Shown: piece after piece, positions 14,799 through 34,860 of the stretch
Layout of the letters: every line of letters begins with the position of its first letter
How positions within the stretch are numbered: the first letter of the stretch is position 1
Translations under genes and position numbers: made by a program
NCBI GenBank assembly: GCA_964416445.1
Contig: CAYQEE010000002.1
Coordinates: forward strand, 106,691-170,690
DNA: 64,000 bases
Direction of reading: 5' to 3'
Source of the DNA: an uncultured Gammaproteobacteria bacterium
GTDB taxonomy: Bacteria > Patescibacteriota > Microgenomatia > Levybacterales > UBA12049
The notes under the pieces: generated by a model
The model's input: the letters and a program-made list of their open reading frames with translations, nothing else
The model's database searches: none
Told to the model about the DNA's origin: nothing

Positions 14799-16052
14799 TT
14801 ACGAGTATGCATTAAGTATTTCTTTCGAAATTACAGTGAGACCTGCTAAAACTGAAGCTTCATCTTGGCTATAAGTTATTCGTAGACACTCATCTTTTTG
14901 TTTCCATTTTTCATCGAGTCCTGGATAGAAATATTTCCCTGGAACAACTAATACTCCCTTTGCTTTTAATCGTTGATAAAGTTCATATGAACTTATTGGT
15001 AAATCTTTACACCAAAGCCATAAAAATAAAGCTCCTTCGCTTTTATGTAGGAAATACGGAATAGTACTCCCTTTCATTAACTGATGAAAATGAGCGACAG
15101 CAGTTTCAGACTTTCTTAAATAAAATGGCTTTATGATATTATTACTTATCTCCATAATTTTTCCATTAGTAAACAACGGTAATGTTAAATGCTGTCCAAG
15201 AGTTCCCGTAGAAAGTGACACAATAGCATTAAAGCTTGAAAGATAACTTGTTATTTCTTCGTTTGCAATAACAATTGCTGTACGTGTACTTGGTAAACCA
15301 ATTTTTGATAATGTAAGAACATACACAACATGTTCACTCCAAACTGGAGAAATATCTGTAAAAAGTATATTGGGAAAAGGTGTTCCATACGCGTTATCGA
15401 TAATAAGAGGAATATTATTCGTTTTTGCTAACACATGTAAACGATCCATTTCTGAATCGGTAATCACATTACCTGTAGGATTAGTTGGGCGAGAAACACA
15501 GAGAGCAGCTATATTAGATTGTATCTTGATCTTTTCAAAATTTATATGATATTTAAATGTATGATCATCGAGAAAACTAATAGTTGGTTTCACCGCAGTA
15601 AATAGATTCTCACTAATACCTTGGTCTGCATAACCAATATATTCAGGAACAAGCGGCAATAATATTTTTCTATACTCATCTTCTGATTCGCCAGCAAGCA
15701 TATTGAATAAGTAAAAGAAGGTTGTTTGACTACCATTTATTATGGAGACATTTTTCGAACTTATATTCCATCCATATTGATTATGAAAAAATGTAGCAAT
15801 TGCGTTAATAAACTCATTACTACCTTGTGGAGTCGTATAATTTCCTAGTAATTTTTCAAGTTCACCTTGATTATTTGCTATTTCAGTCCATCTGTCTCTC
15901 CATATTGATTCTACAGCTGGAATATGAGCAGGATTTCCTCCGCCTAACATAAGCATCTTTTGTTGCCCATCCAATGCTTGCCCAAGATCGTCCATTAACT
16001 CCAAAATACCTGTTTTTCTAGTAAGTTTTTTCCCAAAATTTGATAATTTCAT
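14799..16052 (-). CDS. avtA: valine--pyruvate aminotransferase-like class I aminotransferase
   Basis: N-terminus LSNFGKKLTRKTGILELMDDLG...MLGGGNPAHIP closely resembles the AvtA family. Sits at the end of the ilv operon. Confidence 0.6.
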   Translation of the reverse strand: MKLSNFGKKLTRKTGILELMDDLGQALDGQQKMLMLGGGNPAHIPAVESIWRDRWTEIANNQGELEKLLGNYTTPQGSNEFINAIATFFHNQYGWNISSKNVSIINGSQTTFFYLFNMLAGESEDEYRKILLPLVPEYIGYADQGISENLFTAVKPTISFLDDHTFKYHINFEKIKIQSNIAALCVSRPTNPTGNVITDSEMDRLHVLAKTNNIPLIIDNAYGTPFPNILFTDISPVWSEHVVYVLTLSKIGLPSTRTAIVIANEEITSYLSSFNAIVSLSTGTLGQHLTLPLFTNGKIMEISNNIIKPFYLRKSETAVAHFHQLMKGSTIPYFLHKSEGALFLWLWCKDLPISSYELYQRLKAKGVLVVPGKYFYPGLDEKWKQKDECLRITYSQDEASVLAGLTVISKEILNAYS

Positions 16053-16083
16053 AGCTAATTTTTTCTCGTAGTAAGTAGCCTAC

Positions 16084-17844
16084 TTATGAAGTAACTGCTC
16101 CTTCTGAAGCATTCGATACTAATTTTGCATATTTTGCTAAAATTCCTCGTTTATATCGAGAAGTTGGTGCTTTCCATTTTGCTCGTCTATCTGAAATTTC
16201 TTTATCTGTTACTAAAAGGTTCATTGTTTTAGTTTTTAAACTAATTTCTATATTATCCCCATCTTGAACAAGAGCAATGAGACCTCCTTCTTGAGCCTCG
16301 GGAGTTACATGGCCAATCATGTATCCGTGGGTTCCTCCTGAAAAACGTCCATCAGTAACAAGAGCAACATCCTTTCCTAATCCTGCCCCCATAAGTGCTG
16401 CTGATGGAGAAAGCATTTCTCTCATACCGGGACCTCCTTTGGGACCTTCATAACGAATGAATATTACATCCCCCTTATTAATTTTGCCATTCAAAATTGC
16501 ATCTAGTGCCTCTTCCTCTCTATTGAACACTCTTGCTATACCTTTATGAAGTTCAATTTCCTTACCTGAAAGTTTCATCACGGCACCACCTGAAGCTAAA
16601 TTACCCCTCATAATAACAATATGGTGACCTGCAGGTGCGAGGGGTTTTTGGACTGAATAGATAATATTCTGATCCTTTGGTAAAAGAGGAGCGTCTTTTA
16701 CATTTTCTCCGAGCGTTTTCCCTGTTACGGTAAGGCAATCTCCATGAAGTAATCCAGCATCAAGTAAATGCTTCATTACCATCGTAGATCCACCAATATT
16801 AAAGAGATCTTCCATTACATATTTTCCGGATGGTTTAAAATTACCAATAAGAGGGGTTTTCTCACCAATTCTTTCAAAATCATCCAGCGTAAGTTTTACA
16901 TTTGCTTCATGAGCAAGCGATAATAAGTGAAGAACAGCATTTGTAGAACCATTTAATGCCATAACAATAGTAATTGCGTTTTCAAATGCTTCTCGCGTCA
17001 TTATATCCCTCGCACGAATACCTTTTTTGAGTAAATTAAATAACGCTTTTACTGAATTAATACAATCTTGACGCTTATAGACTGAAATATTGTTATGAAT
17101 ATCAACTGCGGGATGAGATGAACTTCCCGGCACACTCATGCCTAATGCTTCAATTGCTAATGCCATGGTATTTGCAGTGTACATACCACCACATGATCCA
17201 TTTCCAGGACAAGCATGACACTCAATTTCATGAAGTTCCTTCTCATCCATTTTTCCCGCAGCATATGAACCTACCGCTTCAAAGAGACTGACAATAGTTA
17301 AGTCTTCCCCTTTATATTTTCCTGGTAGAATCGTTCCACCATAAAGTGTCAATCCAATGCTGTTATTCCTAGCTAAAGGAATTAATGCAGCAGGAATTGT
17401 TTTATCGCAACCACTAAGAGTTAATGCTCCATCTGCCGCGTATGCTTCATGCATTGCTTCTATACAATCAGCAATAAGTTCTCGAGAAACTAATGAGTAC
17501 TTCATTCCTTCAGTTCCCATCGTCTCTCCATCAGTAATTACTGGAGTACCAAAAATAATAGGCTTACCATTATTCTTGTCTATTTCTTCACATATTATTT
17601 TTCCTAAAGTTTGGATATGGGCGTTACAAGGAGTAATGTTTGTATAAGGACAGGCAACTGTCACCAATGGTTTTTCAAAATCCTCATCAGTATAACCAAC
17701 AGCTCTCATCATCGCTCTCGCGGGTGCTCGTCTTACCCAATCATCACTTTCTCGATTTCCAGTTAACTGATGACTTCTCTGCTTAAGAGATCGTGAGGTA
17801 TTTGTACATTCACAATTATCACATGAACAATTCGTTTTATTCAT
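16084..17844 (-). CDS. ilvD: dihydroxy-acid dehydratase
   Basis: [16 protein letters not shown] Fe-S motif and overall ILVD/EDD pattern. Confidence 0.9.
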
Positions 17845-17854
17845 ACGTAAGTAA

Positions 17855-19099
17855 TTATATCAAATAATCATATAGCAACTCTTCGCTAGACAATATTCGA
17901 AAATTTAGTTCCGCTTTCTTCATTCGTTCTAAAAGTGGTTGTAAATCTTTTTTATCACGAAGTTCGATACCAACGAGTGCAGCACCTTTCTCTTTGTTTG
18001 TTTTTTTCATATATTCAAATCGAACAATATCATCTGTTGGGCCGAGTGCACTATCTACAAACTTTCGTAATTGTCCTGGCTTTTGGGTAAATTGAATGAT
18101 AATATAATGCTTTCGTCCCTGGTAAACCAGACTTCGTTCCATAATATCTGGATATCGAAGAATGTCATTGTTTCCTCCACTCAATATACAGACAACAGTT
18201 TTACCGATAATTTCTTTTGAAACAGCGTCAAGTGCAGAAACAGAAAGTGCACCGGCAGGTTCAGCAATGATTCCTTCATTTTGGTAAAGTTCTATCATTG
18301 TTGTACAATCTTTACCCTCAGGAATTAACACAATTTGCTTAACATTATTTTTACAAATAAGAAAAGTACTCTTACCAACAGTTTGAACTGCAGCTCCATC
18401 GACAAAAGTATCTATTTTTTGAAGTGTTATGATTTTGTCTTGCTTAATAGATTCGTACATACTTGGTGACCCTAAAGGTTCAGCTCCAATAATCATAATT
18501 TTATTATTTTTTTGTTTGAGATACGAAGAAATTCCAGAAATTAATCCTCCACCTCCTATTGCAGCAATAACAATATCAACATTTCCTTTCAATTCATCAT
18601 AAACTTCTTTGCCGACTGTACCTTGCCCAGAAATTGTCAAAAAATCATCAAAAGGATGAACATATATCGCATTTTTTTCTTTACAATAGTTTTTAGCTGC
18701 CTTACTTGATTCATCATAGGTATTTCCCACGAGACGAACCTCTGTATATTTTCCCCCAAAGTGTTTTACTTTCTCAATTTTTTGATTAGGAGTAACAATT
18801 GGCATAAAGATCACTCCTTTTATTCGCAGTTCAGAACAACTAAAGGCTACACCTTGTGCATGATTTCCCGCGCTTGCACAGACAACTCCCCTGCTTCGTT
18901 CTTCTGAGGTTAATGTCGCCATTTTGTTATAAGCACCTCGTATTTTAAAGGATCGAACTTCTTGTAAATCTTCCCTCTTTATATAAATTTTCGCATTATA
19001 CTTTTGAGAAAGTCTCTTTGAGAATTGTAAAGGAGTCTTTGCAATAACTTTTTCAAGTCTTTTTGCTGCTTCATCAATCTGTTTAATAGTTATTAACAT
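17855..19099 (-). CDS. ilvA: threonine ammonia-lyase (biosynthetic threonine dehydratase)
   Basis: PLP fold SFKIRGA, GNHAQG and GGGGL motifs, with a C-terminal regulatory-like domain. Confidence 0.85.
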
Positions 19100-19110
19100 A
19101 ATTTAATATT

Positions 19111-19157
19111 AAAAAACCCGCATTTCGCGGGAATCTGTTTTTACGAAATCAGATTCC
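19111..19157 (-). promoter_or_regulatory. ilvA attenuator: antiterminator GGAAUCUG/CAGAUUCC and intrinsic terminator CCCGCGAAAUGCGGG-U6, ending 12 nt before the ilvA ATG
   Basis: Read on the minus strand. The hairpin plus U6 directly precedes the start codon, and its 5' arm overlaps an alternative 8-bp helix with the region just after the leader stop codon. Confidence 0.6.
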
Positions 19158-19158
19158 G

Positions 19159-19209
19159 CTACATACGGTTACTAATTGCAATAATTGAAATTTGTTTTAC
19201 GTTTCTCAT
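19159..19209 (-). CDS. Ile-rich leader peptide MRNVKQISIIAISNRM (ilvA leader, 16 aa)
   Basis: ATG begins 17 nt after the ilvC stop. Four Ile within ISIIAI. The stop is followed immediately by the antiterminator/terminator. Confidence 0.6.
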   Translation of the reverse strand: MRNVKQISIIAISNRM

Positions 19210-19225
19210 TTTAAATACACTGTTA

Positions 19226-20275
19226 TTATTTTTGGTTTTCTGGCCTCAATTCACGAACTTTTCTTCCAGTTGTCCACATCTCACTATTTTTTATAGCAAC
19301 TAATTCCTGTTGTAATTTCTCCCGATAATCAGGTTTACTGTTGGCTACAATTGTAATTTCAGCTTCGTTTCCACTTTTAACGCTTTGATATAAATCTTCA
19401 AATACTGGTTCTACTGCTTTTCGAAATTTATCTTTCCAATCAAGCGCACCTCGCTGAGCCGTCGTAGAACAATTAGCAAACATCCAATCCATTCCATTTT
19501 CACCAATAAGGGGGTATAAACTTTGCGTTGCCTCCTCTACTGTTTCATTAAAAGCTTCCGATGGGCTATGACCATGTTTTCGCAATAAATTATATTGTGC
19601 TTCCATTAAACCAGCGATTGCACCCATTAATACACCTCTTTCCCCAGTCAAATCGCTATAGACTTCCTTCTCCAAAGTTGTTGGAAAAAGAAAACCAGAA
19701 CCCACACCAATCCCCATTGCTTTTACGACATCGTGCGCACGTCCGGATGGATCTTGATACACGGCATAACTAGAATTTATTCCTTTCCCTTCCAAAAAAT
19801 GTTTCCGTACTGTTCTTCCTGATCCCTTTGGAGCAATAAGAATTACATCGACATCCTTTGGAGGAATTATTTTTGTTTTTTTAGAAAATGTGACACCAAA
19901 CCCGTGAGAAAAATAAAGAGTTTTCCCTCTTGTTAAATTCTTTTTTATTGTCGGCCATAGAGCAATCTGTGCAGCATCTGAAAGTAAAAAACAGATAATT
20001 GTTCCTTTTTTAACTGCTTCTTCAATTGAAAATAATGTTTTGCCTTCAACCCAACCATCTGCCTGCGCTTTTGTATATGTATTTGACGGTTTTCGCTGAC
20101 CAACAATAACATTAAATCCATTATCTCGCATATTTAATGCTTGTGCTGGACCTTGAACACCATATCCAATAACGGCAATAACATCATTCTTTAATACCTC
20201 TCGGGCTTTTTCTAAAGGAAATTCATCTCGCGTTACAACTTCCTCTTGATACCCACCAAAATTCATTTTTGCCAT
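19226..20275 (-). CDS. ilvC: ketol-acid reductoisomerase
   Basis: MAKMNFGG...VIGYGVQGPAQALN Rossmann N-terminus; the ORF track extends upstream to 20320. Confidence 0.9.
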   Translation of the reverse strand: MAKMNFGGYQEEVVTRDEFPLEKAREVLKNDVIAVIGYGVQGPAQALNMRDNGFNVIVGQRKPSNTYTKAQADGWVEGKTLFSIEEAVKKGTIICFLLSDAAQIALWPTIKKNLTRGKTLYFSHGFGVTFSKKTKIIPPKDVDVILIAPKGSGRTVRKHFLEGKGINSSYAVYQDPSGRAHDVVKAMGIGVGSGFLFPTTLEKEVYSDLTGERGVLMGAIAGLMEAQYNLLRKHGHSPSEAFNETVEEATQSLYPLIGENGMDWMFANCSTTAQRGALDWKDKFRKAVEPVFEDLYQSVKSGNEAEITIVANSKPDYREKLQQELVAIKNSEMWTTGRKVRELRPENQK

Positions 20276-20325
20276 AAATTTATTACAAGTAAGTATATAC
20301 AAATCCTTATACCAATGCAAGCTAT

Positions 20326-22014
20326 TTATACATACTTATCAATATATTCCACTAATCTCTTTAGCCCTTCGCGTAATTTGTCCTCGTCTAATCCGTATGA
20401 TATACGAATGTGACTTTCTCCACCTAAGCCAAAAGCGCTTCCAGGGACAATTGCAACTTTTGCCTCATGAATAAGTCGTACTGCTAAATCATAATCATCA
20501 ATATTCCCTTCAACTTTTGCAAATGCATAATAAGCTCCTTCCGGAGTTACTAATTTTATTTTTTGAGATTTGTTCAACACTTCAACAACTACTGCACGTC
20601 TTTTTTCAAATGCTTCTTTATACTGAGCTACCATTGTTTGCTTGCCTTTTATTGCAGCAAGTGCGGCATATTGAGATACTGCAGTTGGACAAGTAACTAA
20701 TGAATCATGTATTTTAAATATTTGAGTAATAAGTTTTTTATTGGCAATAATATATCCAATTCTCCACCCTGTCATAGCATACGACTTAGATACGCCAAAA
20801 ATTGAAATGACACGATCACTTACTTCTTTAAAACTACCTATGCTAATATGCTTTTTGCTATCAAAAGTAAAATATTCATAAATCTCATCCGATATGATAA
20901 ATAAGTTATATTGTATCGCGATACGAGCTATCTGCTGTAGCTCATCATATGTATATACTTTTCCTGTCGGATTGCATGGATTACAAACAAGAATTGCTTT
21001 TGTTTGTTGAGTTATAGCTCCTTCAACTTTTGATGAATCAAAAATCCACCCATTTTCTGTCTCTGTTAATGGAACAAAAATTGGCCTACCTCCGTGACGA
21101 GCAATTCTTGTTTGTGTAATATGCGACGCATAATCAGGCGTTAAGACAATAATTTCATCATTTGGATTTAACAGCGCAATAAAAGTTGCCATAAGTGCTT
21201 CAATAGCACCATGTGTTACAAGAACTTGGTCTTTTGAAACAATAATTTTATTATCCTTTCTGACTTTTGTAACAATTGCTTCTCGCAGCGCGTCGATTCC
21301 ATAACCAGAAGTATATTTATCTGTTTTTCCCGACTTTATTGCTTCTATAGCAGCTTCTTTGATAGAGTCATCAGTATTGAATGACGGAATACCTTGTGCA
21401 AGAGAAATAACGTCTTCTTGGGATTCCGCCATTAATTGCAATCGTTTAATAGCTGATACTTCAATTGAAGAAGCCACATATGATGGCTCTTTAACAACAT
21501 CCGAAAACTTGCCAGTATACGCATTACCTTCTTTTGTTAAGGCAATTCTGCCTGAACGCACGTATTCTTTAATTCCAAACGGTTTCAGTAGAGAATATAA
21601 TGAATTAATCTCTTCTTCGGAACCAGATTTTTCAATCGTAACAAAATCACTCCCGACATAAACAATTTTTGCTCGAAACAAATAAACAAGATCTTCTACT
21701 TCCCTTCTTTGATCGGGATTTTTTGTTGCTACTTTTATAAGTGAGATTTCTTTGAATAAAAGCTCCTCATCTGTTTTTTCAAACACTTTAACAACTTCGA
21801 TAATTCTATAAAGTTGTTTTACTATTTTTTCGATTATATGTGAGTCCGTTTTAACAACTACAGTAAACCGCGAAAGACCTTTTGTTTCAATTTCTGAAAC
21901 TGTTAAACTTTCAATATTAATTTTCCGTCGGAGGAATAAATCCGCAATTCGATAAAGCACACCGGGTTTATTATCGGTAAAAATAATGATTGTATATTGT
22001 TTTATATTTTTCAT
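20326..22014 (-). CDS. ilvH: fusion protein: acetolactate synthase small/regulatory subunit (ACT plus ALS_ss_C, about aa 1-175) joined in frame to a class I (aspartate/aromatic-type) aminotransferase (about aa 190-562)
   Basis: N-terminus IIIFTDNKPGVLYRIADLFLRRKINIESL (IlvH ACT). C-part AQGIPSF...YTSGYG...GWRIGY fold-type I PLP aminotransferase. Single uninterrupted 562-aa ORF. Confidence 0.7.
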   Translation of the reverse strand: MKNIKQYTIIIFTDNKPGVLYRIADLFLRRKINIESLTVSEIETKGLSRFTVVVKTDSHIIEKIVKQLYRIIEVVKVFEKTDEELLFKEISLIKVATKNPDQRREVEDLVYLFRAKIVYVGSDFVTIEKSGSEEEINSLYSLLKPFGIKEYVRSGRIALTKEGNAYTGKFSDVVKEPSYVASSIEVSAIKRLQLMAESQEDVISLAQGIPSFNTDDSIKEAAIEAIKSGKTDKYTSGYGIDALREAIVTKVRKDNKIIVSKDQVLVTHGAIEALMATFIALLNPNDEIIVLTPDYASHITQTRIARHGGRPIFVPLTETENGWIFDSSKVEGAITQQTKAILVCNPCNPTGKVYTYDELQQIARIAIQYNLFIISDEIYEYFTFDSKKHISIGSFKEVSDRVISIFGVSKSYAMTGWRIGYIIANKKLITQIFKIHDSLVTCPTAVSQYAALAAIKGKQTMVAQYKEAFEKRRAVVVEVLNKSQKIKLVTPEGAYYAFAKVEGNIDDYDLAVRLIHEAKVAIVPGSAFGLGGESHIRISYGLDEDKLREGLKRLVEYIDKYV

Positions 22015-22016
22015 AC

Positions 22017-23702
22017 TTATTCTAATCGTATTTCATGAACTGCAGCTCCACTTGGAACCATAGGAAATACTTTAGTTTCTTTTTTAACTTTTATTTCCAA
22101 AAGATATGGGTTTTTTGATGTAAATAATGTATCCAATGCTTTATCTAAATCACTTCTACGCTCTACTTTTTGTGCGTCGATATAGAATCCTTTTGCCACT
22201 GCGACGAAATCAGGATTTTGTAATTCTACAAAAGAATATCTATTATCAAAAAACATTTGTTGCCATTGACGCACCATTCCTAAAAAATTGTTATTTAAAA
22301 TAATGATTTTTACCGGAATTTGTTCTTGAGCAAGCGTTGCAAGTTCCTGAATATTCATTTGGAAACTACCATCTCCAATTATCGCGATTACTTCTCTATT
22401 TGGAGAGGCAACCTTTGCTCCTAGTGCTGCAGGTAATGCAAAACCCATTGTCCCTGCACCTCCAGAAGTAATAAAACTATCTGGTTTCTGAAATTTATAA
22501 TACCGAGCCGCAATCATTTGATGTTGCCCAACGTCAGCAACAACTATTGCCTCACCTTTGGTCTTTTCAGAAATACGATTAATGACTTCAGCCATAATAA
22601 TTTCGCCTTCTTTCGGATGAATCTCGCTTTCTATTACTTTTTTGTTTTCCTCATTATCATATTTTCTAAACTCGTTAAGCCATTCATCATGCCTATTTGG
22701 TTTACTATAGGAAATTAGTTCTTCAAGAGCAATTTTAGCATTAGATACTATGGGAACTTCAGCCCGAACATTTTTGTTTAGTTCTGCAGGATCGATATCA
22801 ATATGAATTATTTTTGCATGTCGTGCATAATCAGATAATCTTCCTGTCACACGATCATCAAACCTCATACCAACAGCAAGTATCACATCTGCCTTATTAG
22901 TGAGTACATTTGGACCATAATTACCATGCATACCCAACATACCAACGTATAATGGATGACCTACTGGAAAGGCAGATAGACCAAGCAAGGTCGAAGCTAC
23001 TGGAATTCCAGTTTTTTCAACAAATTTCTTTATCTCATTTTCAGCTTTTCCTATGAGAACACCATGGCCAATAAACATAAGTGGACGTTTTGCGGCATTG
23101 AGTAAATCAGATGCTAATTTAATTTGCTTGATGTTGGGTACCAAAGTTGGTTGATAACTTGGAATTCGCATTCGCTTTGGATAAGAAAAATTTAAAAGAT
23201 CTATTTGTGCACTTTTCGTAACATCAATCAATACTGGTCCTGGCCTCCCTGTTTTCGCAATATGAAACGCTTTTGCAAATACTTCAGGTATTTCAGAAAC
23301 TTTTGTAATTTGATAATTCCATTTGGTAATAGGGGTACTAATACCTATAATATCCGCTTCCTGAAATGCATCGGAACCCAATAAATTTTCTGCCACTTGA
23401 CCAGTGATACACACAAGAGGAACAGAATCCATCATTGCATCCATTATCGGAGTAATTAAATTTGTGGCACCAGGACCAGAAGTTACCAATACCACCCCTG
23501 GTTCACCAGTCATTCTTGCATAACCTTCTGCCGCATGTCCCGCACCTTGTTCATGACGGACTAAAATATGTCGAATTTTTTCTTTATAGTCATAGAGTGC
23601 GTCATACACAGGCATGATTGCCCCTCCAGGATATCCAAATATTACTTTTACTTTTTCTGCAAGCAACGATTCGATTATTGCATGCGATCCATTCATTTTC
23701 AT
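22017..23702 (-). CDS. ilvB: acetolactate synthase large subunit (ThDP-dependent)
   Basis: GYPGGAIMPVYDAL, GDGSFQMN ThDP motif. Start set at MKMNGSH (23702), because the longer ORF would run through the attenuator terminator. Confidence 0.9.
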   Translation of the reverse strand: MKMNGSHAIIESLLAEKVKVIFGYPGGAIMPVYDALYDYKEKIRHILVRHEQGAGHAAEGYARMTGEPGVVLVTSGPGATNLITPIMDAMMDSVPLVCITGQVAENLLGSDAFQEADIIGISTPITKWNYQITKVSEIPEVFAKAFHIAKTGRPGPVLIDVTKSAQIDLLNFSYPKRMRIPSYQPTLVPNIKQIKLASDLLNAAKRPLMFIGHGVLIGKAENEIKKFVEKTGIPVASTLLGLSAFPVGHPLYVGMLGMHGNYGPNVLTNKADVILAVGMRFDDRVTGRLSDYARHAKIIHIDIDPAELNKNVRAEVPIVSNAKIALEELISYSKPNRHDEWLNEFRKYDNEENKKVIESEIHPKEGEIIMAEVINRISEKTKGEAIVVADVGQHQMIAARYYKFQKPDSFITSGGAGTMGFALPAALGAKVASPNREVIAIIGDGSFQMNIQELATLAQEQIPVKIIILNNNFLGMVRQWQQMFFDNRYSFVELQNPDFVAVAKGFYIDAQKVERRSDLDKALDTLFTSKNPYLLEIKVKKETKVFPMVPSGAAVHEIRLE

Positions 23703-23728
23703 AAAAAAAATCCCCGCTGTAAGCGGGG
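23703..23728 (-). terminator. ilvB attenuator terminator CCCCGCUUACAGCGGGG-U8, abutting the ilvB ATG
   Basis: Perfect 6-bp GC stem plus 8 U on the minus strand. An alternative pairing is available with the upstream GCGGGG segment (23757-23771). Confidence 0.65.
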
Positions 23729-23763
23729 TTAAGTTTGTTTGCTCCAAGCAATCAAACCCCGCG

Positions 23764-23811
23764 TTAAGGGGTAATGACGACAAGGAGTTTAAGTGTGCTT
23801 TTCAATATCAT
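23764..23811 (-). CDS. branched-chain leader peptide MILKSTLKLLVVITP (ilvB leader, 15 aa)
   Basis: Regulatory run LLVVIT. The stop codon lies inside segment CCCCUUAACGCGGGG. Confidence 0.65.
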   Translation of the reverse strand: MILKSTLKLLVVITP

Positions 23812-23914: not shown

Positions 23915-24181
23915 GTGGAAAATAATACAACTCAAAAAACTCAGCGCTCCCCGTATGTTTTATCTAAATTTGATCTTCTTGGAACAATTTTAGAAGAGTG
24001 TCCAAGGGCAGCAGAATTATTAGCTGAATACGGGTTACATTGTATCAGTTGTTTTGCAAATCAGTTTGATACGTTAGAAATGGGTGCACAAGTACATGGG
24101 ATGACCGATGACGATCTTAACGATATGGTAAATGAAATTAATACTGAATTAGAACTCGAATGGAGACAGGGAAAATTATGA
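23915..24181 (+). CDS. small DUF1858-like protein (CxxC-containing), first gene of the suf cluster
   Basis: GTG start preceded by AGGAGGG. LSKFDLLGTILEECPRAAELLAEYGLHCISC resembles the DUF1858 family. The assignment is weak. Confidence 0.45.
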   Translation: MENNTTQKTQRSPYVLSKFDLLGTILEECPRAAELLAEYGLHCISCFANQFDTLEMGAQVHGMTDDDLNDMVNEINTELELEWRQGKL

Positions 24182-24927
24182 AAGCGTTAAAAATTACTGA
24201 TTTACATGTACAAACACTCGATGGGAAAAAAATATTAAACGGTGTTAATCTTGAAATAAAAACTGGTGAAATTCATGCTATTATGGGTCCGAACGGCGGT
24301 GGTAAATCAACATTCTCTCAAGTGCTCATGGGTCATCCCGGGTATGTTGTCACCCAAGGGACAATAGTTATTGATGGTATTGACATTACGTCTCTCTCCC
24401 CTGATCAACGAGCTAAACACGGGCTTTTCCTCGGTTTTCAATATCCAGTTGAAGTTGCTGGGGTTAACTTTGCAAACTATCTGAGACTCGCAATGAACGA
24501 GCAACGAAAAGAGCACGAGAAGAAGATTTCCCCAATCGCTTTTCGAAAACTTCTGGCTGAAAAAGCACAACCCTTAATGTTCAATGAGGATATTGCAAAA
24601 CGAATGCTCAATGAAGGGTTTTCGGGAGGTGAAAAGAAAAAATCAGAAATACTCCAATTAGCTATTTTGCAACCTGATTTTGCTATATTAGATGAACCAG
24701 ATTCTGGACTCGATATTGACGCCTTACGATACATTGCTAATAGTATAAATGCAATGAAGAGCAGTCTGGGATTGATTCTAATAACACATTATCAGAGGAT
24801 TCTTCGTTATATCAATCCACAATTTGTCCATATTATGATCAAAGGGAAACTTGTAGAATCAGGAAGTGGGAATCTTGCAAAAGAAATAGAAGAAAAAGGA
24901 TATGAAAATTACATTCAAAGTAATTAA
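24178..24927 (+). CDS. sufC: Fe-S cluster assembly ATPase
   Basis: GPNGGGKST Walker A, ABC signature, Walker [14 protein letters not shown] overlap with the upstream gene. Confidence 0.9.
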
Positions 24928-24932
24928 TTACT

Positions 24933-26336
24933 ATGGCATTGAACAAACAACCAGTTATCAAAGACTCTTATAAATTTGGTTTTCACAAACCAGAACTTTC
25001 TGTTTTTAAAACGCCAAAAGGATTAAATCCACAAGTAGTTGAAGCAATCTCTTACTTCAAGAAGGAACCCGCATGGATGCTAAAATTTCGACTCGATGCC
25101 TTGAAGATATTTGAGCAAAAACAGCTTCCAACATGGGGAGCAGATTTATCTGGAATTAATTTTAATGATATTTACTATTATATTAGTCCGTCAGAAAAAA
25201 AATTTCATACCTGGGACGAGGTTCCAAATGATATCAAAGACACTTATGATAAGATTGGAATACCGCAAGCTGAACGTAAGTTTTTAGCAGGTGTTGGGGC
25301 ACAATGGGATTCTGAAGTCATCTATCATAATTTAAAAACACAATGGGAAAACCAAGGTGTTATCTTTACTGATACTGATACTGCCCTTCAAAAGTATCCT
25401 GATATTTTTAAACATTATTTCGGAACTATTATCCCTCCATATGATAATAAGCTTGCAGCACTTAATTCAGCAGTTTGGAGTGGAGGTTCATTTATCTATG
25501 TACCAAAAGGTATTCATGTCGAAATTCCTTTACAAGCATATTTTAGGATAAATGCAAATAATATGGGGCAATTCGAAAGAACACTCATCATTGCAGAAGA
25601 AGGAAGTTACGTACATTACGTCGAGGGATGCACGAGCCCAATTTATACAACTGACTCCTTACACGCTGCTGTTGTTGAAATTATTGTCAAAAAAGGAGCT
25701 CGAGTTCGCTATACAACAATACAAAACTGGTCAAATAACGTTTATAACCTCGTAACAAAACGTATGAAAGTTGAAGAAGAAGGAATTGGAGAATGGATCG
25801 ATGGAAATTTAGGTTCCAAAATCACAATGAAGTACCCTTCTGTATTTTTAACAGGAAAAGGAGCTAAAGGAGAGGTACTATCACTCGCATTTGCTGGGAA
25901 AGGACAACACCAAGATGCAGGAGGAAAAGCATTTCATCTTGCTCCTTATACAACAAGCACTATTACCTCTAAATCGGTTAGTATGGGCGGAGGCAGAGCA
26001 AGTTATCGAGGAATGATAAAAATATTGAATGGTGCAAAAGGAAGTAAATCATTTGTGCGATGTGATGCATTACTCCTCGATGAACTCTCTCGTTCAGATA
26101 CATATCCTACTAATATTGTGAATGAACAAGATATTACTCTTGGACATGAAGCATCAGTCAGTAAAGTTGGTCAAGAACAACTTTTTTATCTTATGTCACG
26201 AGGTTTATCTGAGGCAGAAGCAACATCATTAATTGTTAATGGATTCATTGAACCTATTGTTAAAGAACTTCCTTTAGAATATGCTGTTGAACTGAACAGG
26301 CTTATTGAACTTTCAATGGAAGGAGCTGTTGGGTAA
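24933..26336 (+). CDS. sufB: Fe-S cluster assembly scaffold protein
   Basis: 467 aa with the SufB/SufD beta-helix core. Confidence 0.9.
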
Positions 26337-28584: not shown

Positions 28585-29184
28585 ATGGTAGTTTCGCAAG
28601 AATATTTACAAAATAGACTTCCATTTACTCCGGCAGGTAGCAATCATATTACCCATTCAATTATTTGGCCGCTCCCAAAAACACATACATCCGAAAGAAC
28701 ATTTTTAGCTATGCATGCTCACACGGCTAGACTGTCATCGTTACCTTTAAGACGAGATCATATCATGAGTATCTTACAGCAGGAAGCCAAACCATATGTG
28801 CCCCATACAGAAGTGTTATATAAAAAATATGAAGGAGGTACGGTAAAAGAAGAAACGCATCCTAATTTAGTTGGTTTAAAAAGATTTACCTCTGCAGAGG
28901 AATATGTACAAATTGGAAATGATACATTTATTCATCAAACAGATACTTTACTAAGTACTAATTCAGACAGTATTCACCCGATAGGAATTCGGCATACACG
29001 AAGAATGTTTAATCCTGAGGAATCATTCGAAATAGTGGAATATCCCAAGGGAGCAAGATACGAATTACATGGATCTCCCGATCAAGCGACGTTAGTTATT
29101 CTGTATGACCTTCCCACAGCTCAAGCTATTAATGCACCAACGCTTTTTAGGCCTCCTCTACCGAGAGAGTCATGCAGAAGATAA
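28585..29184 (+). CDS. hypothetical His-rich protein
   Basis: 199-aa ORF with no recognisable family. Slightly GC-richer than its surroundings. Convergent with leuB, overlapping it by 15 nt. Confidence 0.35.
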   Translation: MVVSQEYLQNRLPFTPAGSNHITHSIIWPLPKTHTSERTFLAMHAHTARLSSLPLRRDHIMSILQQEAKPYVPHTEVLYKKYEGGTVKEETHPNLVGLKRFTSAEEYVQIGNDTFIHQTDTLLSTNSDSIHPIGIRHTRRMFNPEESFEIVEYPKGARYELHGSPDQATLVILYDLPTAQAINAPTLFRPPLPRESCRR

Positions 29185-30249
29185 ATTTTCAAGAAATTCT
29201 ACTATTCTATCACCTACCACGGCGGTTGAAATAATTTTATTTTGTGCAGAAGTAATATCTCTTGTTCCATGTCCTTCAGTCAGTAACATCTGTACTGCAT
29301 TATAAATAGCATTTCGTTCATTTACTAAACCAAAACTATACTCCAACATCATTGCAGCTGATAAGATACAACCAATAGGATTGGCTATATTTTTCCCTGC
29401 TGCTTTTGGAAAAGATCCATGAATTGGTTCGAATAATGAAGTCTTCAATCCAATCGAAGCTGATGGTAATAAGCCGATAGAACCACTAATAACTGATGCC
29501 TCGTCAGTTAAAATATCACCAAACATATTTTCAGTAACTATGACATCAAATTCCCTTGGTCTTTTAATTATTTGCATTGCTGCATTATCAACAAACATAA
29601 AATCTACAAGAATATCAGAGTAATCATGCATCATAGATTGTACTGTTTCACGCCATAACCGTGAGGTTTCCAAAACATTCGCTTTATCTACGACAGTTAA
29701 TTTTTTCTTTCTTCTCTTGGCTAATTGAAACGCATAGGTAACAACACGCTGAATTTCATCTCTCGTGTATTCAGAAGTATCATACGCACTCGTCCGATTC
29801 TCATTTCTTCCTCGTTTACCGAAATATATTCCTCCAATAAGTTCTCGTATGACAATAAAATCAACTGCTTGAATAATTTCTTCTTTTAATGGTGAACGAG
29901 AAAGAAAGTTTCTAAAAGTAAATATGGGACGGATATTTGCATATAAACCTAAGTTCTTTCTCATTGCAAGTAATCCTTGTTCGGGACGAATTGCAATTTT
30001 TGGATCATTATCATACTTAGGATCTCCTATGGCTCCAAAGAGTATTGCATCTGATGTTTCACAAATTTCTCTCGTCTCCTCAGGATATGGACTACCTGTT
30101 TTATCAATCGCTATTGCACCTATTAATCCATCCACAAAGGTGAATTCATGATGATATTTTTGGGCAATTTTTTTTAAAACCTTTATAGCTTGTTGGGTAA
30201 TCTCAGGTCCAATACCATCACCAGGAAGAACTGCAATTATTTTTTTCAT
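29170..30249 (-). CDS. leuB: 3-isopropylmalate dehydrogenase
   Basis: AVLPGDGIGPE and NLFGDILTDEAS motifs. Confidence 0.9.
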   Translation of the reverse strand: MKKIIAVLPGDGIGPEITQQAIKVLKKIAQKYHHEFTFVDGLIGAIAIDKTGSPYPEETREICETSDAILFGAIGDPKYDNDPKIAIRPEQGLLAMRKNLGLYANIRPIFTFRNFLSRSPLKEEIIQAVDFIVIRELIGGIYFGKRGRNENRTSAYDTSEYTRDEIQRVVTYAFQLAKRRKKKLTVVDKANVLETSRLWRETVQSMMHDYSDILVDFMFVDNAAMQIIKRPREFDVIVTENMFGDILTDEASVISGSIGLLPSASIGLKTSLFEPIHGSFPKAAGKNIANPIGCILSAAMMLEYSFGLVNERNAIYNAVQMLLTEGHGTRDITSAQNKIISTAVVGDRIVEFLENLSSA

Positions 30250-30255
30250 ACGCTC

Positions 30256-30870
30256 TTAATAGGATATTGAATAGTCATTTTCTCTTGTTTTTTCAAACTC
30301 TTCAATTTTTGTTTTCATACTAAGTATATAGTCAATATCATCATACCCATTCATAACACATATTTTTTTATATGGATTCAAATCAAAATGCTCATACATG
30401 TTCATTGAGGGAATGCCAACAACTTGTTTGTCTACATTAATATCAATTATTGTTTTGGAGTCATGTAGTATAGTATTAAATAACTCGTTAAGAAAGTTCT
30501 GAGAGACCTGGACAGGTAATAAACTATTATTAAGCGCGTTATTCTTGAAAATATCTGCAAAGTAACTTGAAATTACCGCTTTAAATCCATAATCGGCTAA
30601 AGCCCACGCCGCATGTTCTCTACTCGACCCACATCCAAAGTTATATCCTGCAACCAGAATTTCACCAGTATAATCTGGATGATTAAGAATAAAGTGTGGT
30701 TTCGGATTCCCATCCATATCATATCGCCAATCTCGAAAAACATTTAATCCAAAACCTTCACGAGAAGTTGCTTTTAAAAAACGTGCAGGAATAATTTGAT
30801 CTGTATCAACATTCTCCATTTGTAATGGAACTGCTGTTGAAGTAATTTTAGACAATTGTTTTCTTTTCAT
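30256..30870 (-). CDS. leuD: 3-isopropylmalate dehydratase small subunit
   Basis: Aconitase swivel-domain motifs GCGSSREHA. Confidence 0.9.
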
Positions 30871-32276
30871 ATCATATCCCTGACATCAGTCACATATCCC
30901 GTTATTGCAGCAGCCGCAGCAGTTATTGGGCTAGCAAGGAATGTTCTCGCTCCCGGGCCTTGTCTACCCTGGAAATTTCTGTTTGAGGTTGAAATACAAT
31001 ATTTGCCTGTTGGGATTTTGTCATCATTCATGCCTAAACAAGCAGAGCATCCCGAACCACGCACATCAAAACCAGCTTCAAGAAAAATTTTATCTAATCC
31101 TTCTTTTCTTACTTGTGCTTCAACTTGTTTTGAGCCAGGCACAACAAGAACAGTCACATCACGAGGCTTTTTCTTTCCTTTTACGATTTGCGCTACCATT
31201 CGAAAATCTTCTATTCGAGAATTGGTACAACTACCAAGAAAAACATAATCTACCTTTTGTCCAATCATTTTTTTCCCGGGCTGTAAACCCATATAAGTCA
31301 TTGCTTTACGAAAACTCTCCTGCTGTGAACTGGTTTCAAATATATCTTCTGTTGGAATAGTTTTTGTAATTCCCATGCCCATTCCAGGATTAGTTCCATA
31401 TGTTATCATCGGTTCGATATCCTTTGCATCTATAGATATTTGCTTATCATAAATTGCTCCTTTATCTGTTCTTAACGATCTCCAATAAGTAACAGCTTGA
31501 TTCCAAGCTTCGCCTTTTGGCATAAATTTGCGATTTTTCATATATGCAAATGTTGTATCATCGGGAGCAATCAATCCACCTCGCGCTCCCATTTCTATAC
31601 TCATATTACAAATAGTCATTCGTGCTTCCATCGATAAACTTTCAATAGCTGAACCTGAATATTCAACAAAGTACCCTGTACCTCCTGCTGTGGAGATTTT
31701 TGAGATGATATAAAGAATAATATCTTTAGAAACAACGCCCTTCCCTAATTTACCTTCAATTTTGATATTCATTGTTTTTGGTTTATATTGCAAAATTGAT
31801 TGAGTAGCCAATACTTGCTCAACTTCACTTGTTCCTATTCCAAAGGCAATACATCCAAACGCCCCATGTGTCGATGTATGACTATCCCCACACACAACTG
31901 TCATTCCTGGTTTGGTTATACCGAGTTCAGGACCAATAACATGAACTATTCCTTGATAAGGGTGTCCTAATCCATAAAGTTCTACTTGAAAATCTTCACA
32001 ATTTTTCTTTAACATCTCAACTTGTCTTCTTGATAATTCTTCGCGAATTGGTTTATCTTGATCTTTGGTTGGAACATTATGATCCATCGTAGCCCATGTC
32101 CTTTTGGTCCGAAAAACAGGAATACCTCGCTTACGTAAGCCTGAAAATGCTTGCGGGCTTGTCACTTCATGAACGAGATGCGCATCGATATAAAGAATTG
32201 CTGGATAGTCTTCTTTTTGAAATACTACATGGCTGTTCCAAATTTTTTCAAAAAGTGTTTTCGGTTCACTTTGCAT
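30867..32276 (-). CDS. leuC: 3-isopropylmalate dehydratase large subunit
   Basis: Aconitase family with CGDSHT, GSCTNSR and CSACLG motifs. Confidence 0.9.
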
Positions 32277-32280: not shown

Positions 32281-33774
32281 TTATCCTATTATTTTACTTA
32301 AACTATCGAGATATGCTCGTACTGTAGCAACAATAATATCGGTATCTGATCCGAAACCATAGAAAACATTACCTTTAAAGGCAATCTGAATATGCACTTT
32401 TCCTATATCATCACTCCCCCCAGTTACTGCCTGAATAAGGAATTCTTCAAGATTCACTTTCTTTTTAATAATTTTATTTACTGCATTAAATGCTGCATCT
32501 ACGGGACCATTTCCTGTCGAACTAGCAATTTCCTCAATTCCATTTACCAATAATTTGACAGAAGCCATTGGATATAAGGGAGTTCCACAAACCACTTCAA
32601 GAAACTCTAATTTTATTCCTGCGTCTTTAATAGATCCTCCCATAAGGATATGCAAATCATTATCATTGACGTCCTTTTTCTTATCTGCTAATGTTAAAAA
32701 TTTTTCATAGATTCCATCTAATTCTTGCGACGTTACTTTATACCCAAGTCTCTCTAAATGATGATTCAACGCAGATCTACCTGAACGTGCTGTCAAGGCT
32801 AGTGAAGATTCATTAATACCAACATCTTTGGGATTTATTATTTCGTAAGTAAATCGATTCTTTAAAATTCCGTTTTGATGAATTCCTGATGAGTGCGCAA
32901 AGGCATTTCTTCCAACAATTGCTTTATTTGCTTGGATTGGCATTCGCATCAATCGTGAGACTAGCCTACTTGTAGGATAAATTTTTCTTGTATTAATATT
33001 CGATAATACCTTGAGATCTTTTCTTGTTTTCATAATCATTACTGCTTCTTCTAAAGAGGTATTTCCTGCTCGCTCCCCCACACCATTTATAGTTACTTCC
33101 ACTTGCCTTGCACCATTTTGAACTGCAGCAATTGTATTAGCAGTTGCCATTCCTAAATCATTATGACAATGAACTGAAACAATAACATTTTCAATTCCTT
33201 TTACATGTTCATAAAGATATTTAATTTTTTCACCAAATTCGTTAGGTAAACAGTAGCCAGTGGTATCAGGAATATTAACAGTTGTTGCACCTGCCTCAAT
33301 TGCTGCTTGGATAAACTTTGCTAAAAATTCATTTTCTGTTCTCCCCGCATCCATTGCAGAAAATTCGACATCTTCCACATATTGTTTTGCATGTTTCACT
33401 GATGCAACTGCTTGTTCCAAGATCTTTTCTCTAGTAGATCGGAATTGATGAATAATATGAATATCAGAACTACTAATAAATGTATGGATTCGTTTATTCT
33501 TTGCAAATTTTAACGATTCAGCTGCACAATCAATATCTGCAGGTATTGCTCGTGATAGGGCACAGATAATTGGCTCTGTAACAACCTTTGAGATCTCTTG
33601 TACAGAATGTAAATCTCCTGGACTTGATATTGGAAATCCAGCTTCAATAACATCTACACCAAGTTCGCTAAGAGCAGTCGCAACTTCAATTTTTTCAACT
33701 GTATTGAGTTGGCAACCCGGTACCTGTTCTCCATCACGTAGTGTTGTATCAAAAATATAAACTTTATCTTTCAT
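32281..33774 (-). CDS. leuA: 2-isopropylmalate synthase
   Basis: [11 protein letters not shown] and HCHNDLG motifs, with a LeuA dimerisation/regulatory C-terminus. Confidence 0.9.
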
Positions 33775-33930: not shown

Positions 33931-34860
33931 TTATTTTATAGATATTGTTGTGCACCATGATTCATATTCTTTATCTTCTCCTCTAACTATTTTAAAGAAT
34001 TTATCTTGTAATTTTGCTGTAATTGTCCCCCGTTTTCCGTTCCCAATAATTCTCTTATCAATTTTTGCTACCCAAGCAACCTGACAGCCAGTACCTGAAA
34101 GAAACACTTCGTCAGCAACATATAATTCACTACGATCTACGGTTCTTGCCTCAATGGGAATACCCATATCTTTTGCAATTTTCATGAGTGATCTTCGAGT
34201 AATTCCTTCGAGAACATCATCTCCTGCAGCTGGAGTAATGAGTACACCATCACGAATAATAAATAAATTTTCAGCTGAACCTTCACAAACACTTCCTGCT
34301 TCAGATAACATTATTGCTTCATCGTATCCATTTTCATGAGCCTCTTTTCTTGCTAGAGCTGAGTTTACATAACCTCCCGATATTTTTGCTCGTGAAGGTA
34401 TTGCATTATCTGATATTCTCCTCCATGAAGAAACCATTAATGATAATCCTTTACTAACTGGTAAATATTCACCTAAAGGGATCATATATAATGCGAAATC
34501 CAGTACTGTATCTGCTAAATTAGGTCCAAGATTTGTATGACCAACATATGCATAGGGACGTAAGTAGACATCGGTTTGTGGCCTATTCTTTTTGATTAAA
34601 TCTAGCGTGTTTTCACGAAGTTGCTCTTTTGTATAAGGAAGACTACAGCCTAATATTTTTACTGATGATAAAAAACGTTTATAGTGATCATCAATTCTAA
34701 AAACTGAAATACTTCCCTTTTTGGTATTTACATATCCGCGAATTCCTCCAAAGATTCCTGTACCATATTGGAGAGCATTCGTCATAATTGAGACTTTTGC
34801 GTCTTCAATTTTTATGATATTTCCTTGAAAATATGCATACGGAAATGGTGTTGAATTCAT
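33931..34860 (-). CDS. ilvE: branched-chain amino acid aminotransferase (fold type IV)
   Basis: YGTGIFGGIRGY and EGSAENLF...TGCQV motifs. Confidence 0.85.
   Translation of the reverse strand: MNSTPFPYAYFQGNIIKIEDAKVSIMTNALQYGTGIFGGIRGYVNTKKGSISVFRIDDHYKRFLSSVKILGCSLPYTKEQLRENTLDLIKKNRPQTDVYLRPYAYVGHTNLGPNLADTVLDFALYMIPLGEYLPVSKGLSLMVSSWRRISDNAIPSRAKISGGYVNSALARKEAHENGYDEAIMLSEAGSVCEGSAENLFIIRDGVLITPAAGDDVLEGITRRSLMKIAKDMGIPIEARTVDRSELYVADEVFLSGTGCQVAWVAKIDKRIIGNGKRGTITAKLQDKFFKIVRGEDKEYESWCTTISIK

Follow-up and report, generated by a model that had tools for sequence, protein, structure and literature searches.

We examined a 64-kb stretch of contig CAYQEE010000002.1 (hereafter the window, meaning the whole of the DNA that was analysed) in which a gene for the regulatory subunit (IlvH) of acetohydroxyacid synthase (AHAS, also called acetolactate synthase) continues in frame into a pyridoxal-phosphate (PLP)-dependent aminotransferase. 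A sequence-only reading of this DNA had described the gene as an in-frame fusion of a complete IlvH to a complete fold-type I aminotransferase, and had proposed that the valine-sensing ACT module thereby regulates a transaminase that performs the last, branched-chain step of the pathway. We find that the fusion is real and is conserved in part of the Microgenomates, a group within the Patescibacteria or candidate phyla radiation (CPR). Its first half most likely retains the normal regulatory role, and its second half, as judged by sequence and predicted structure, is of a type other than the branched-chain family. The parts of the gene are as follows.

20326..22014, reverse strand: the ilvH–aminotransferase fusion gene, an uninterrupted open reading frame (ORF) of 562 aa plus stop codon, with an ATG start
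21775..21999, reverse strand: ACT domain of the AHAS regulatory subunit, residues ~6-80 (PF22629; aligns with 2F1F)
21532..21753, reverse strand: ALS_ss_C domain, residues 88-161 (PF10369, 1e-25, profile positions 1-73 of 74; predicted local distance difference test [pLDDT] scores of 86-93)
21463..21522, reverse strand: inter-domain linker, residues ~165-184, in which the natural C-tail of IlvH is joined to the natural N-tail of the aminotransferase
20329..21462, reverse strand: fold-type I (class I, subgroup Ib-like) PLP aminotransferase, residues 185-562 (PF00155, full length)
20785..20787, reverse strand: codon of K410, the PLP Schiff-base lysine, in the motif SKSYAMTGWR, read directly from the sequence
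21202..21204, reverse strand: codon of I271, which takes the place where aspartate aminotransferases of subgroup Ib have the lysine that binds the distal carboxylate (placed by HMMER alignment)
~21079-21111, 20491-20493 and 20425-20427: region conserved only in fused members, residues 302-312, 508 and 530

A genuine fusion conserved in part of the Microgenomates

The ORF, which we read directly at these coordinates, is continuous as had been claimed and comprises three parts: the small subunit (residues ~6-164), a variable linker of ~20 residues, and the aminotransferase (residues 185-562). Pfam recognised ACT_AHAS_ss (PF22629) at residues 11-76 (3e-17), ALS_ss_C at residues 88-161, and Aminotran_1_2 (PF00155) at residues 201-554 (3e-67, profile positions 2-361 of 361), and just 2 nt separate the stop codon of ilvB from the ATG of the fusion. 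With full-length Pfam matches and, for the regulatory half, equivalog cutoffs that were passed, the description of two complete proteins joined in frame held.

The same 562-aa protein, 100% identical, occurred in four independent assemblies from the Sequence Read Archive with the gene order unchanged. A word-indexed search of 5.8 billion proteins recovered at least 120 clusters (at 90% identity) that were 57-100% identical to the fusion and came from NCBI, JGI, ENA and Logan; nearly all of them covered 98-100% of the query, including all three domains, the exceptions being a few sequences truncated on short contigs. Scanning metagenomes with the family-specific motif SLAQGIPS as the seed, we found 17 loci in which an aminotransferase half at least 59% identical to ours was accompanied by an IlvH match, and in 17 of 17 the IlvH match lay in the same frame and the same ORF. 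The join that the sequence-only reading had placed near position 21490, and had flagged as a possible frameshift or assembly error, corresponds to residue ~175 and falls within the linker (residues 165-184, nt 21463-21522), which varies in both sequence and length, as expected of a genuine coding linker. Because the protein is identical in four assemblies, is represented by so many diverged full-length clusters and is in frame at every close metagenome locus, we conclude that the fusion is genuine; its origin in a frameshift made by sequencing, in a lost stop codon or in the joining of separate ilvH and aminotransferase genes during assembly is excluded.

The named hosts of the fusion are Candidatus Levybacteria, Roizmanbacteria and Woesebacteria, all of the Microgenomates group of Patescibacteria, together with entries named 'Microgenomates bacterium' and 'Patescibacteria group bacterium'. 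A HMMER search of 1.84 billion 50%-identity representatives returned one full-length fused representative (P0091, 760 bits), below which the ranking held matches made through the aminotransferase half alone, mostly proteins of ~370-420 aa, besides some fragments and a few proteins of greater length; a second, independent IlvH–aminotransferase fusion family, which should have appeared high in the ranking, was absent from the top hits among these representatives. At 50% clustering, free orthologs are concealed by representatives that are themselves fused or fragmentary, and the idea, taken from this ranking, that the whole aminotransferase clade is fused was rejected, as a search with the protein of metagenome locus L110 found free orthologs. 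No PDB chain spanned both halves (query-normalised TM-score of at most 0.64), no solved AHAS regulatory subunit with an appended enzyme was among the PDB matches, and our literature search found no description of the IlvH–aminotransferase architecture. As far as these searches show, both families are known, and their combination is undescribed and restricted to one lineage. In public databases the fusion is annotated as 'acetolactate synthase small subunit' (NCBI) or as either 'aminotransferase' or 'acetolactate synthase small subunit' (JGI).

The regulatory half, the linker and the aminotransferase half

Residues 1-170 on their own scored 161.7 against a cutoff of 119 with NF008864, the NCBIfam equivalog for the AHAS small subunit, and 144.4 against a cutoff of 56.9 with TIGR00119 (profile positions 2-156 of 158). 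The half aligned end to end with 2F1F, 2FGC, 2PC6 and 6U9H. Because the alignment runs to near the C terminus of free-standing IlvH proteins (as far as residue 158 of the 164-residue E. coli chain and, in Thermotoga, residue 184 of 193), we regard the IlvH half as complete. In an AlphaFold2 (AF2) model its ACT domain adopted the beta-alpha-beta-beta-alpha-beta fold (pLDDT 80-89). The sequence alignment with E. coli IlvH (2F1F) placed the ligand-loop residues N15, G18 and N33 opposite N11, G14 and N29. Among 35 diverse fused members, N15 was kept in 34, and P17, G18, L20, N33 and T38 were each kept in all 35. Classical valine-resistance mutations fall at G14 of E. coli IlvH, in the ACT ligand loop, a point that we take as a lead only. 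In its ACT-then-ALS_ss_C layout, above-cutoff score, adjacency to ilvB and ligand-loop residues, the half had each of the features of an IlvH-type AHAS small subunit, and a tblastn search of the window found no second ilvH. Since it is complete and is the only ilvH-like sequence beside ilvB, the IlvH half most likely works as a normal AHAS regulatory subunit and would bind valine and activate AHAS.

The closest parallels to this half are the IlvH proteins of AHAS III (2F1F from E. coli, 2FGC from Thermotoga and 2PC6 from Nitrosomonas), which have the same ACT and ALS_ss_C domains, the same glycine loop and the same position after ilvB, and to which the fusion adds a 43-kDa enzyme at the C terminus; bacterial AHAS small subunits are 9-17 kDa (review, PMC5727371). 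Its best PDB match was the Arabidopsis AHAS regulatory subunit (6U9H/6VZ8; 196 bits), both repeats of which matched over residues 3-170. The plant subunit is likewise enlarged, but by a tandem IlvH repeat, whereas the fusion is enlarged by an unrelated catalytic domain.

Mean pairwise identity among the 35 members was 0.66 in the ACT domain, 0.58 in ALS_ss_C and 0.64 in the aminotransferase, but 0.26, with indels, across residues 165-184, a pattern that implies two constrained domains joined by a genuine linker. The AF2 model, built on the family alignment, had a mean pLDDT of 84.8 with both halves confidently folded, and its predicted template-modelling score (pTM) of 0.66 was consistent with two rigid bodies that would have no fixed mutual orientation. 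Residues ~161-180 had a pLDDT of ~50 and no secondary structure. Within the aminotransferase, residues 291-310 were modelled with lower confidence (pLDDT ~60). The N termini of free orthologs are homologous to the C-terminal part of the linker, and at the join the two natural tails, C-terminal in IlvH and N-terminal in the aminotransferase, meet essentially head to tail, an arrangement that fits the loss of a stop codon between neighbouring genes.

The aminotransferase half had the full fold, the Schiff-base lysine, the PLP-binding Asn, Asp and Tyr and the alpha-carboxylate Arg of fold-type I, subgroup Ib PLP aminotransferases. K410 aligned with the conserved lysine of the 'aKafamtgwr' and 'sKtfamtgwr' motifs of Thermus aspartate aminotransferase (AspAT) and 1DJU, and was present in all 35 fused, all 39 free and all 15 outgroup sequences; N348, D376, Y379, R418 and R537 were likewise invariant in the fused (35/35) and free (39/39) forms. 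By sequence, the closest PDB entries were 1DJU/1GD9 (249 bits), followed by 1O4S and the Thermus AspAT entries (~231 bits), with plant and rhizobial prephenate aminotransferases also among the nearest solved structures. By fold, Foldseek gave target-normalised TM-scores of 0.88-0.92 against 6F77, 1GD9, 5WMH and 1BJW. Identity to subgroup Ib structures was 31-38%, and the P. furiosus alanine aminotransferase (1XI9) was among both the sequence and the structure neighbours. No NCBIfam model attained its cutoff on this half: the best was NF041091 (archaeal aspartate aminotransferase; 336 bits against 550), and below their cutoffs the aspartate/aromatic-type models scored 281-336 bits and the alanine aminotransferase model 239 bits. 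Membership in IlvE (fold-type IV; TIGR01122/NF005146) found no backing in Pfam or NCBIfam, neither of which gave an Aminotran_4 match, and membership in AvtA found none among the fusion's best 25 NCBIfam hits, which included no AvtA model (NF006963-NF006967). Searched against the window with tblastn at E<=1e-3, the half returned only itself. Sequence and model thus place the aminotransferase in a subgroup Ib-like (aspartate/aromatic/prephenate) type and outside the branched-chain family.

Subgroup Ib enzymes of known structure (1BJW/1BKG, 1DJU/1GD9, 1O4S, 6F77 and 5WMH) share with the fusion their fold and the PLP Lys, Asn, Asp, Tyr and Arg; the fusion differs in having Ile for the lysine of the GGKQ motif, QGIPSF in place of the usual GEPDF motif, the clade-specific residues H268, H298 and Q301 (35/35 fused, 39/39 free), and an attached IlvH. 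The GGKQ lysine, Lys109 in literature numbering, is what we take to recognise the distal carboxylate of acidic substrates. At this position wild-type Thermus AspAT (1BKG) reads 'tvGGKQalf', the engineered 1B5O 'GGSQ' and our query 'thGAIEalm'. Column 271 held Ile in 31, Thr in three and Met in one of the 35 fused sequences, and Ile in 31, Leu in four, Thr in three and Ser in one of the 39 free ones; the equivalent residue is still lysine in the Thermotoga AspAT and is Asn in the aromatic enzyme of P. horikoshii. The half therefore departs from the Thermus AspAT type of aspartate/prephenate aminotransferase at the very lysine that marks it, which makes a classical aspartate or prephenate aminotransferase unlikely and suggests that neutral or hydrophobic side chains are probably preferred. 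Isoleucine at this position would be compatible with branched-chain substrates, and equally with alanine, aromatic amino acids and methionine.

Operon context, free orthologs and the wider window

The fusion gene lies within a cluster of branched-chain biosynthesis genes on the reverse strand.

14799..16052, reverse strand: avtA-type valine-pyruvate transaminase (NF006964, 594 bits against a cutoff of 467)
16084..17844, reverse strand: ilvD (NCBIfam NF002068, above cutoff)
17855..19099, reverse strand: ilvA (NCBIfam NF006390, above cutoff)
19226..20320, reverse strand: ilvC (NCBIfam TIGR00465, above cutoff)
22017..23783, reverse strand: ilvB, AHAS catalytic subunit (TIGR00118, 759 bits against a cutoff of 538)
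29170..30249, reverse strand: leuB (NCBIfam TIGR00169, above cutoff)
30256..30870, reverse strand: leuD (NCBIfam NF002458, above cutoff)
30867..32276, reverse strand: leuC (NCBIfam NF004016, above cutoff)
32281..33774, reverse strand: leuA (NCBIfam NF002086, above cutoff)
33931..34860, reverse strand: class IV ilvE, canonical (NF005146, 375 bits against a cutoff of 279)

The gene occupies the slot between ilvB and ilvC in which ilvH is usually found, and leuABCD and the class IV ilvE lie 7-13 kb from it on the same strand; both this placement and the presence in the cluster of a canonical ilvE and an avtA-like gene, each above its cutoff, had been called correctly from the sequence alone. The link to ilvB is strictly kept. 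Among the 17 fused metagenome loci, ilvB lies directly upstream in 16, and the contig of the 17th starts inside the fusion gene; the same holds for all five contexts with an identifiable upstream gene that were obtained by protein look-up. Relatives as distant as 58% identity retain the order of ilvB and fusion, and the two genes are 0-3 nt apart in the five looked-up contexts; ilvB also adjoins the fusion at loci L085, L091, L093 and L174. After the fusion, relatives have either leuA-ilvA-ilvC-ilvD(-ridA) or ilvC-ilvA-ilvD. Of the 12 contexts with sufficient flanking sequence, 11 had a separate class IV ilvE (Aminotran_4; the window, L085, L091, L093, L174, L097, L100, L106, L107, L108 and L111, with L092 as the exception), and several fused contexts had an avtA-type gene; co-occurrence of ilvE, avtA and ilvB was read from contig flanks. 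Given the ilvE in all but one of these contexts, the fused aminotransferase does not replace a missing branched-chain aminotransferase.

Several features of these operons stand apart from the fusion itself. Five related ilv operons have a gene of the RidA type (Ribonuc_L-PSP) after ilvD, either directly or with one gene between (L085, 17593-17964; L091, 16116-16490; L092, 8758-9132; L093, 15915-16289; L174, 12434-12793), and in the window the avtA-type gene takes the place after ilvD. At L085, trp genes adjoin the ilv operon. An Rfam search of the whole window found one tRNA only, with no leader, T-box or riboswitch upstream of ilvB. The longest ORF of ilvB has a TTG start and encodes 588 aa, and gene callers, working on identical assemblies, begin 27 codons further in (561 aa); the longest ORF of ilvC also has a TTG start and encodes 364 aa, against 349 or 358 aa in gene calls from identical assemblies. 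Since the Pfam domains begin at residue ~30 of ilvB and ~43 of ilvC, the true starts of both genes are probably internal. The divergent region between ilvB and sufC contains an 88-aa DUF1858 gene (23915-24181, forward strand) that overlaps the start of sufC, in an arrangement that is identical in all independent assemblies covering the region (L081-L083).

Close relatives of the aminotransferase half also exist as free-standing proteins. At metagenome loci L109 and L110, an aminotransferase 58-62% identical to the fused one has no IlvH and no ilv neighbours; a stop codon lies 19-27 codons upstream of the alignment, and the L110 gene has its own ATG at 3152. The search with the L110 protein yielded ~50 clusters of free enzymes, full-length at 389-415 aa and 53-76% identical to L110. 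One free ortholog comes from a Candidatus Levyibacteriota genome of 762 kb (CP066685.1); contigs of 0.49 and 1.2 Mb carry others. The close forms among these free CPR aminotransferases (for example P0294, from Ca. Levyibacteriota) are orthologous to the aminotransferase half, with N termini homologous to the linker, and differ in standing alone without ilv genes nearby, whereas the fusion sits in an ilv operon. They are annotated 'pyridoxal phosphate-dependent aminotransferase' or 'aminotransferase', and more distant free enzymes 'aromatic amino acid aminotransferase' (P0334 and P0361, from Falkowbacteria/Parcubacteria). The free genes have varied neighbours: L176 lies between genes for an Asp/Glu racemase and phosphoglucose isomerase, L177 (7307-11182) lies 25 nt after pyruvate phosphate dikinase with an FBPase_3-family gene ahead of the latter, and L178 lies beside glycan-metabolism genes. 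At six free loci tblastn found no ilv or leu gene in the available 6-10 kb of flank (less at contig ends), nor was any found within 6 kb of 61 more distant relatives at 31-45% identity. A profile search with the full-length alignment, using generic class I motifs (K[ST]Y[AS]MTGW), gave only unfused aminotransferases of at most 41% identity among the matches listed. An ilv or leu match lay within 8 kb of 14 of the 80 listed loci of such distant unfused relatives, of which ~5 were convincing (L021, L049, L071, L078 and L079), and we rejected this neighbourhood as a signal because it was too weak.

In a neighbour-joining tree of 89 sequences (378 columns, 200 bootstraps), fused and free forms made up one clade that excluded all outgroups in 200 of 200 replicates. 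The two states are intermixed in this clade: in every replicate, no fewer than 23 of the 39 free sequences fell inside the most recent common ancestor of the fused ones, and several free lineages were basal. This interleaving is independently supported by lineage-specific N-terminal motifs that are common to both states, since the motif of free P0324 and P0307 (AIKRFQILIEKE) matches that of fused P0096 (AIKQFEILISKE), and the motif of free P0272 and L110 (IDVSIIKKIEL) matches that of fused P0103. The active-site columns are equal in the 35 fused and 39 free sequences. Because free orthologs interleave with fused ones and have the same active site, we infer that the aminotransferase is a vertically inherited housekeeping enzyme of the lineage that was not retuned by fusion; as far as its sequence tells, it looks like the lineage's general-purpose transaminase.

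The changes of state in the tree may reflect one fusion followed by several fissions with loss of the ilv operon, or several fusions. Searches for IlvH remnants in the N termini of free aminotransferases and in the upstream DNA gave chance-level hits only. The genes for trigger factor (tig) and then a DUF5660-type protein precede the free aminotransferase in L110 (1551-3130) and the ilvB–fusion pair in L093 (6611-8149), the DUF5660 identity of the L110 gene being judged by position and sequence character. This shared context may be the trace of a deletion in which ilvB and the IlvH half were lost, but the nearest fused relatives of L110 (P0109) differ in what lies upstream, so it is no more than suggestive. 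A few columns vary among the free sequences and are conserved among the fused ones (R306, H307, G309, R310, Y508 and L530, and also M195), and these could be either a fusion-specific interface or only phylogenetic signal.

Beyond the ilv and leu genes, the window is unusually rich in biosynthesis genes for a relative of CPR/Microgenomates, and contains the following clusters and genes.

1594-3876, reverse strand: fol cluster (folE, folK, folP)
14799-23783, reverse strand: ilv cluster
24160-28526, forward strand: suf Fe-S cluster
29170-34860, reverse strand: leu cluster and ilvE
39492-43678, reverse strand: thr cluster
39492-41018, reverse strand: threonine synthase
41011-41637, reverse strand: 208-aa ORF with a faint homoserine-kinase match only
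41683-42762, reverse strand: homoserine dehydrogenase, which starts 2 nt after aspartate kinase
42764-43678, reverse strand: aspartate kinase, 304 aa (TIGR00657, positions 2-285 of 442)

Because only the catalytic part of the profiles was matched, we take the aspartate kinase to lack the ACT regulatory domains that are usual at the C terminus. In the suf cluster, full-length SufB is followed by a SufD-like protein of 188 aa (26361-26927, forward strand) that comprises the C-terminal core of SufD only (profile positions 119-268 of 275); the longest sufS ORF (26839-28155, forward strand) overlaps the SufD-like gene by 89 nt, and gene callers start it later, at 411 aa. The gene at 55381-58422 (forward strand) encodes 1013 aa with an alpha-2-macroglobulin bait-region, an MG2 and a Big_5 domain, a protein that is unexpected in a small-genome bacterium.

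Probable function of the fusion and its meaning

We favour, as the probable account, a bifunctional gene that supplies both the IlvH regulatory subunit and a housekeeping transaminase of the lineage, tethered to AHAS. The IlvH half would form dimers through its ACT domains, take up valine at the conserved glycine loop, and both activate and feedback-inhibit IlvB. The aminotransferase half would be an obligate class I dimer, with glutamate and 2-oxoglutarate as its likely co-substrate pair and with neutral or hydrophobic partners (alanine/pyruvate, aromatic amino acids, methionine or branched-chain amino acids). The flexible tether of ~20 residues would ensure equimolar co-production of a general transaminase and its co-localisation with acetolactate synthase, in Microgenomates that presumably make their own valine, leucine and isoleucine. 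A possible benefit would be the recycling to glutamate of 2-oxoglutarate released by IlvE, or the interconversion of alanine and pyruvate beside a pyruvate-consuming enzyme. From these comparisons we read both what the transaminase would act on and why the tether would be selected, and on them an equimolar, co-localised general transaminase seems likelier than a dedicated, valine-gated enzyme of the final step.

That dedicated enzyme was the proposal of the sequence-only reading: a terminal branched-chain transaminase gated allosterically by its ACT domain, such that one sensor would govern both the first and the last step. We consider it unlikely, although it has points in its favour. The fused form always occurs in an ilv/leu operon directly after ilvB, hydrophobic I271 is compatible with branched-chain substrates, and some columns are conserved only in fused members. 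The N-terminal arm of Thermus AspAT closes over the active site in subgroup Ib enzymes, and it is the corresponding arm to which the tether is joined, a conceivable route for a signal. Covalent attachment of an ACT-like module to an enzyme also has precedents in concept, in IlvA (the window's IlvA is PALP plus Thr_dehydrat_C) and in SerA and PheA; the ACT-like domain of IlvA, however, regulates its own enzyme, of fold-type II, whereas the ACT domain of the fusion belongs to AHAS and its link to the fold-type I aminotransferase is putative. Against the proposal stand the class IV ilvE in nearly every context with enough flank and the avtA-type gene in several, the free orthologs with the same active-site residues outside ilv contexts, the lack of ilv or leu genes near any of the 61 more distant relatives (0/61 within 6 kb), and the failure of any known branched-chain family model to match. 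In addition, a linker that is variable in sequence and length and predicted to be disordered is a poor fit to rigid allosteric transmission. The claim that the aminotransferase performs the last branched-chain step, and with it the coupling of valine feedback to that enzyme, is thus not borne out. The sequence-only reading had itself allowed that the enzyme might turn out to belong to an unrelated subfamily, such as aspartate aminotransferases, with no link to branched-chain metabolism; the likeness to aspartate/aromatic/prephenate enzymes of subgroup Ib bears out the first part of this caveat, and the strictly conserved link of the fused form to the ilv operon leaves room for a pathway-related role.

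Two other roles for the aminotransferase deserve consideration. It might be mainly an alanine (or other pyruvate-forming) aminotransferase, which when tethered to AHAS would convert scavenged alanine and the 2-oxoglutarate released by IlvE into pyruvate, the substrate of AHAS, and glutamate, the donor for IlvE, so that the carbon and nitrogen cycles of the pathway would both be closed at a single complex. AHAS consumes two pyruvate per turnover, the half is without the acidic-substrate lysine, 1XI9 is among its structural and sequence neighbours, and two free orthologs have suggestive surroundings, L177 in following pyruvate phosphate dikinase by 25 nt and L176 in having an Asp/Glu racemase gene close by in a genome of only 762 kb, in which one would expect a general Ala/Glu transaminase. 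We nevertheless find this coupling improbable, as it depends on a single neighbourhood observation (L177), the alanine model scored lower than the aspartate/aromatic-type models (239 versus 281-336 bits, with none at cutoff), and channelling over a flexible 20-residue tether is speculative. Alternatively, the aminotransferase fold might sense an amino acid by forming an external aldimine with it, and so modulate AHAS through the attached subunit. MocR/GabR-type regulators do use fold-type I aminotransferase domains to sense effectors in a PLP-dependent manner, and here such a domain sits on a regulatory subunit. Those regulators, however, combine the aminotransferase fold with a winged helix, whereas the fusion has no helix-turn-helix domain in Pfam and has ACT plus ALS_ss_C as its N-terminal module. 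With all catalytic residues invariant, free orthologs that stand alone in metabolic contexts without a partner domain, and a pattern of constraint typical of an enzyme, a sensor seems very improbable.

Several considerations weigh against the bifunctional reading that we favour. The strict retention of the fused form in ilv operons could mean a pathway-specific role, and the conserved 2-nt spacing to ilvB leaves room for coupling at the level of assembly. Functional coupling would also be favoured if the columns that only the fused members conserve were part of a new interface, as they might be, though phylogenetic confounding is strong. The substrate range that we propose derives from one specificity position and family resemblance, and the neighbour-joining trees, on ~240-380 columns, resolve deep nodes weakly. 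Finally, the evidence consists of loci, so fused genomes might have a second, free copy of the aminotransferase, and genomes with a free aminotransferase might have ilvB.

A more far-reaching form of the idea, which we hold to be a doubtful prospect, is a functional tether, through which valine occupancy or the state of AHAS would be relayed via the N-terminal arm of the aminotransferase, or alanine-derived pyruvate would be handed to AHAS. If this were true, the IlvB dimer, the ACT dimer and the aminotransferase dimer would together constitute a natural metabolon with two enzymes and one sensor, recycling of the nitrogen donor would be linked to the committed step of branched-chain amino acid synthesis, and the fused-only patch of R306, H307, G309, R310, Y508 and L530 would be a new interface. 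We know of no AHAS reported to be organised in this way.

AHAS is a major herbicide and antimicrobial target, and the mechanism of its regulatory subunit is still under structural study. A regulatory subunit that tolerates, and conserves, a 43-kDa enzyme at its C terminus constrains models for the assembly of the AHAS holoenzyme, and the fusion is a ready-made scaffold for tests of enzyme co-localisation in the engineering of valine and isobutanol pathways. Because public annotation names one half only, metabolic reconstructions may miscount transaminases in organisms that have the fusion. The CPR is usually described as metabolically limited (for example in PMC9938205 and PMC11809585). Some Microgenomates carry ilv, leu and thr gene clusters, and if the tether couples both activities of the protein encoded in the first of these, it would represent a new regulatory design.

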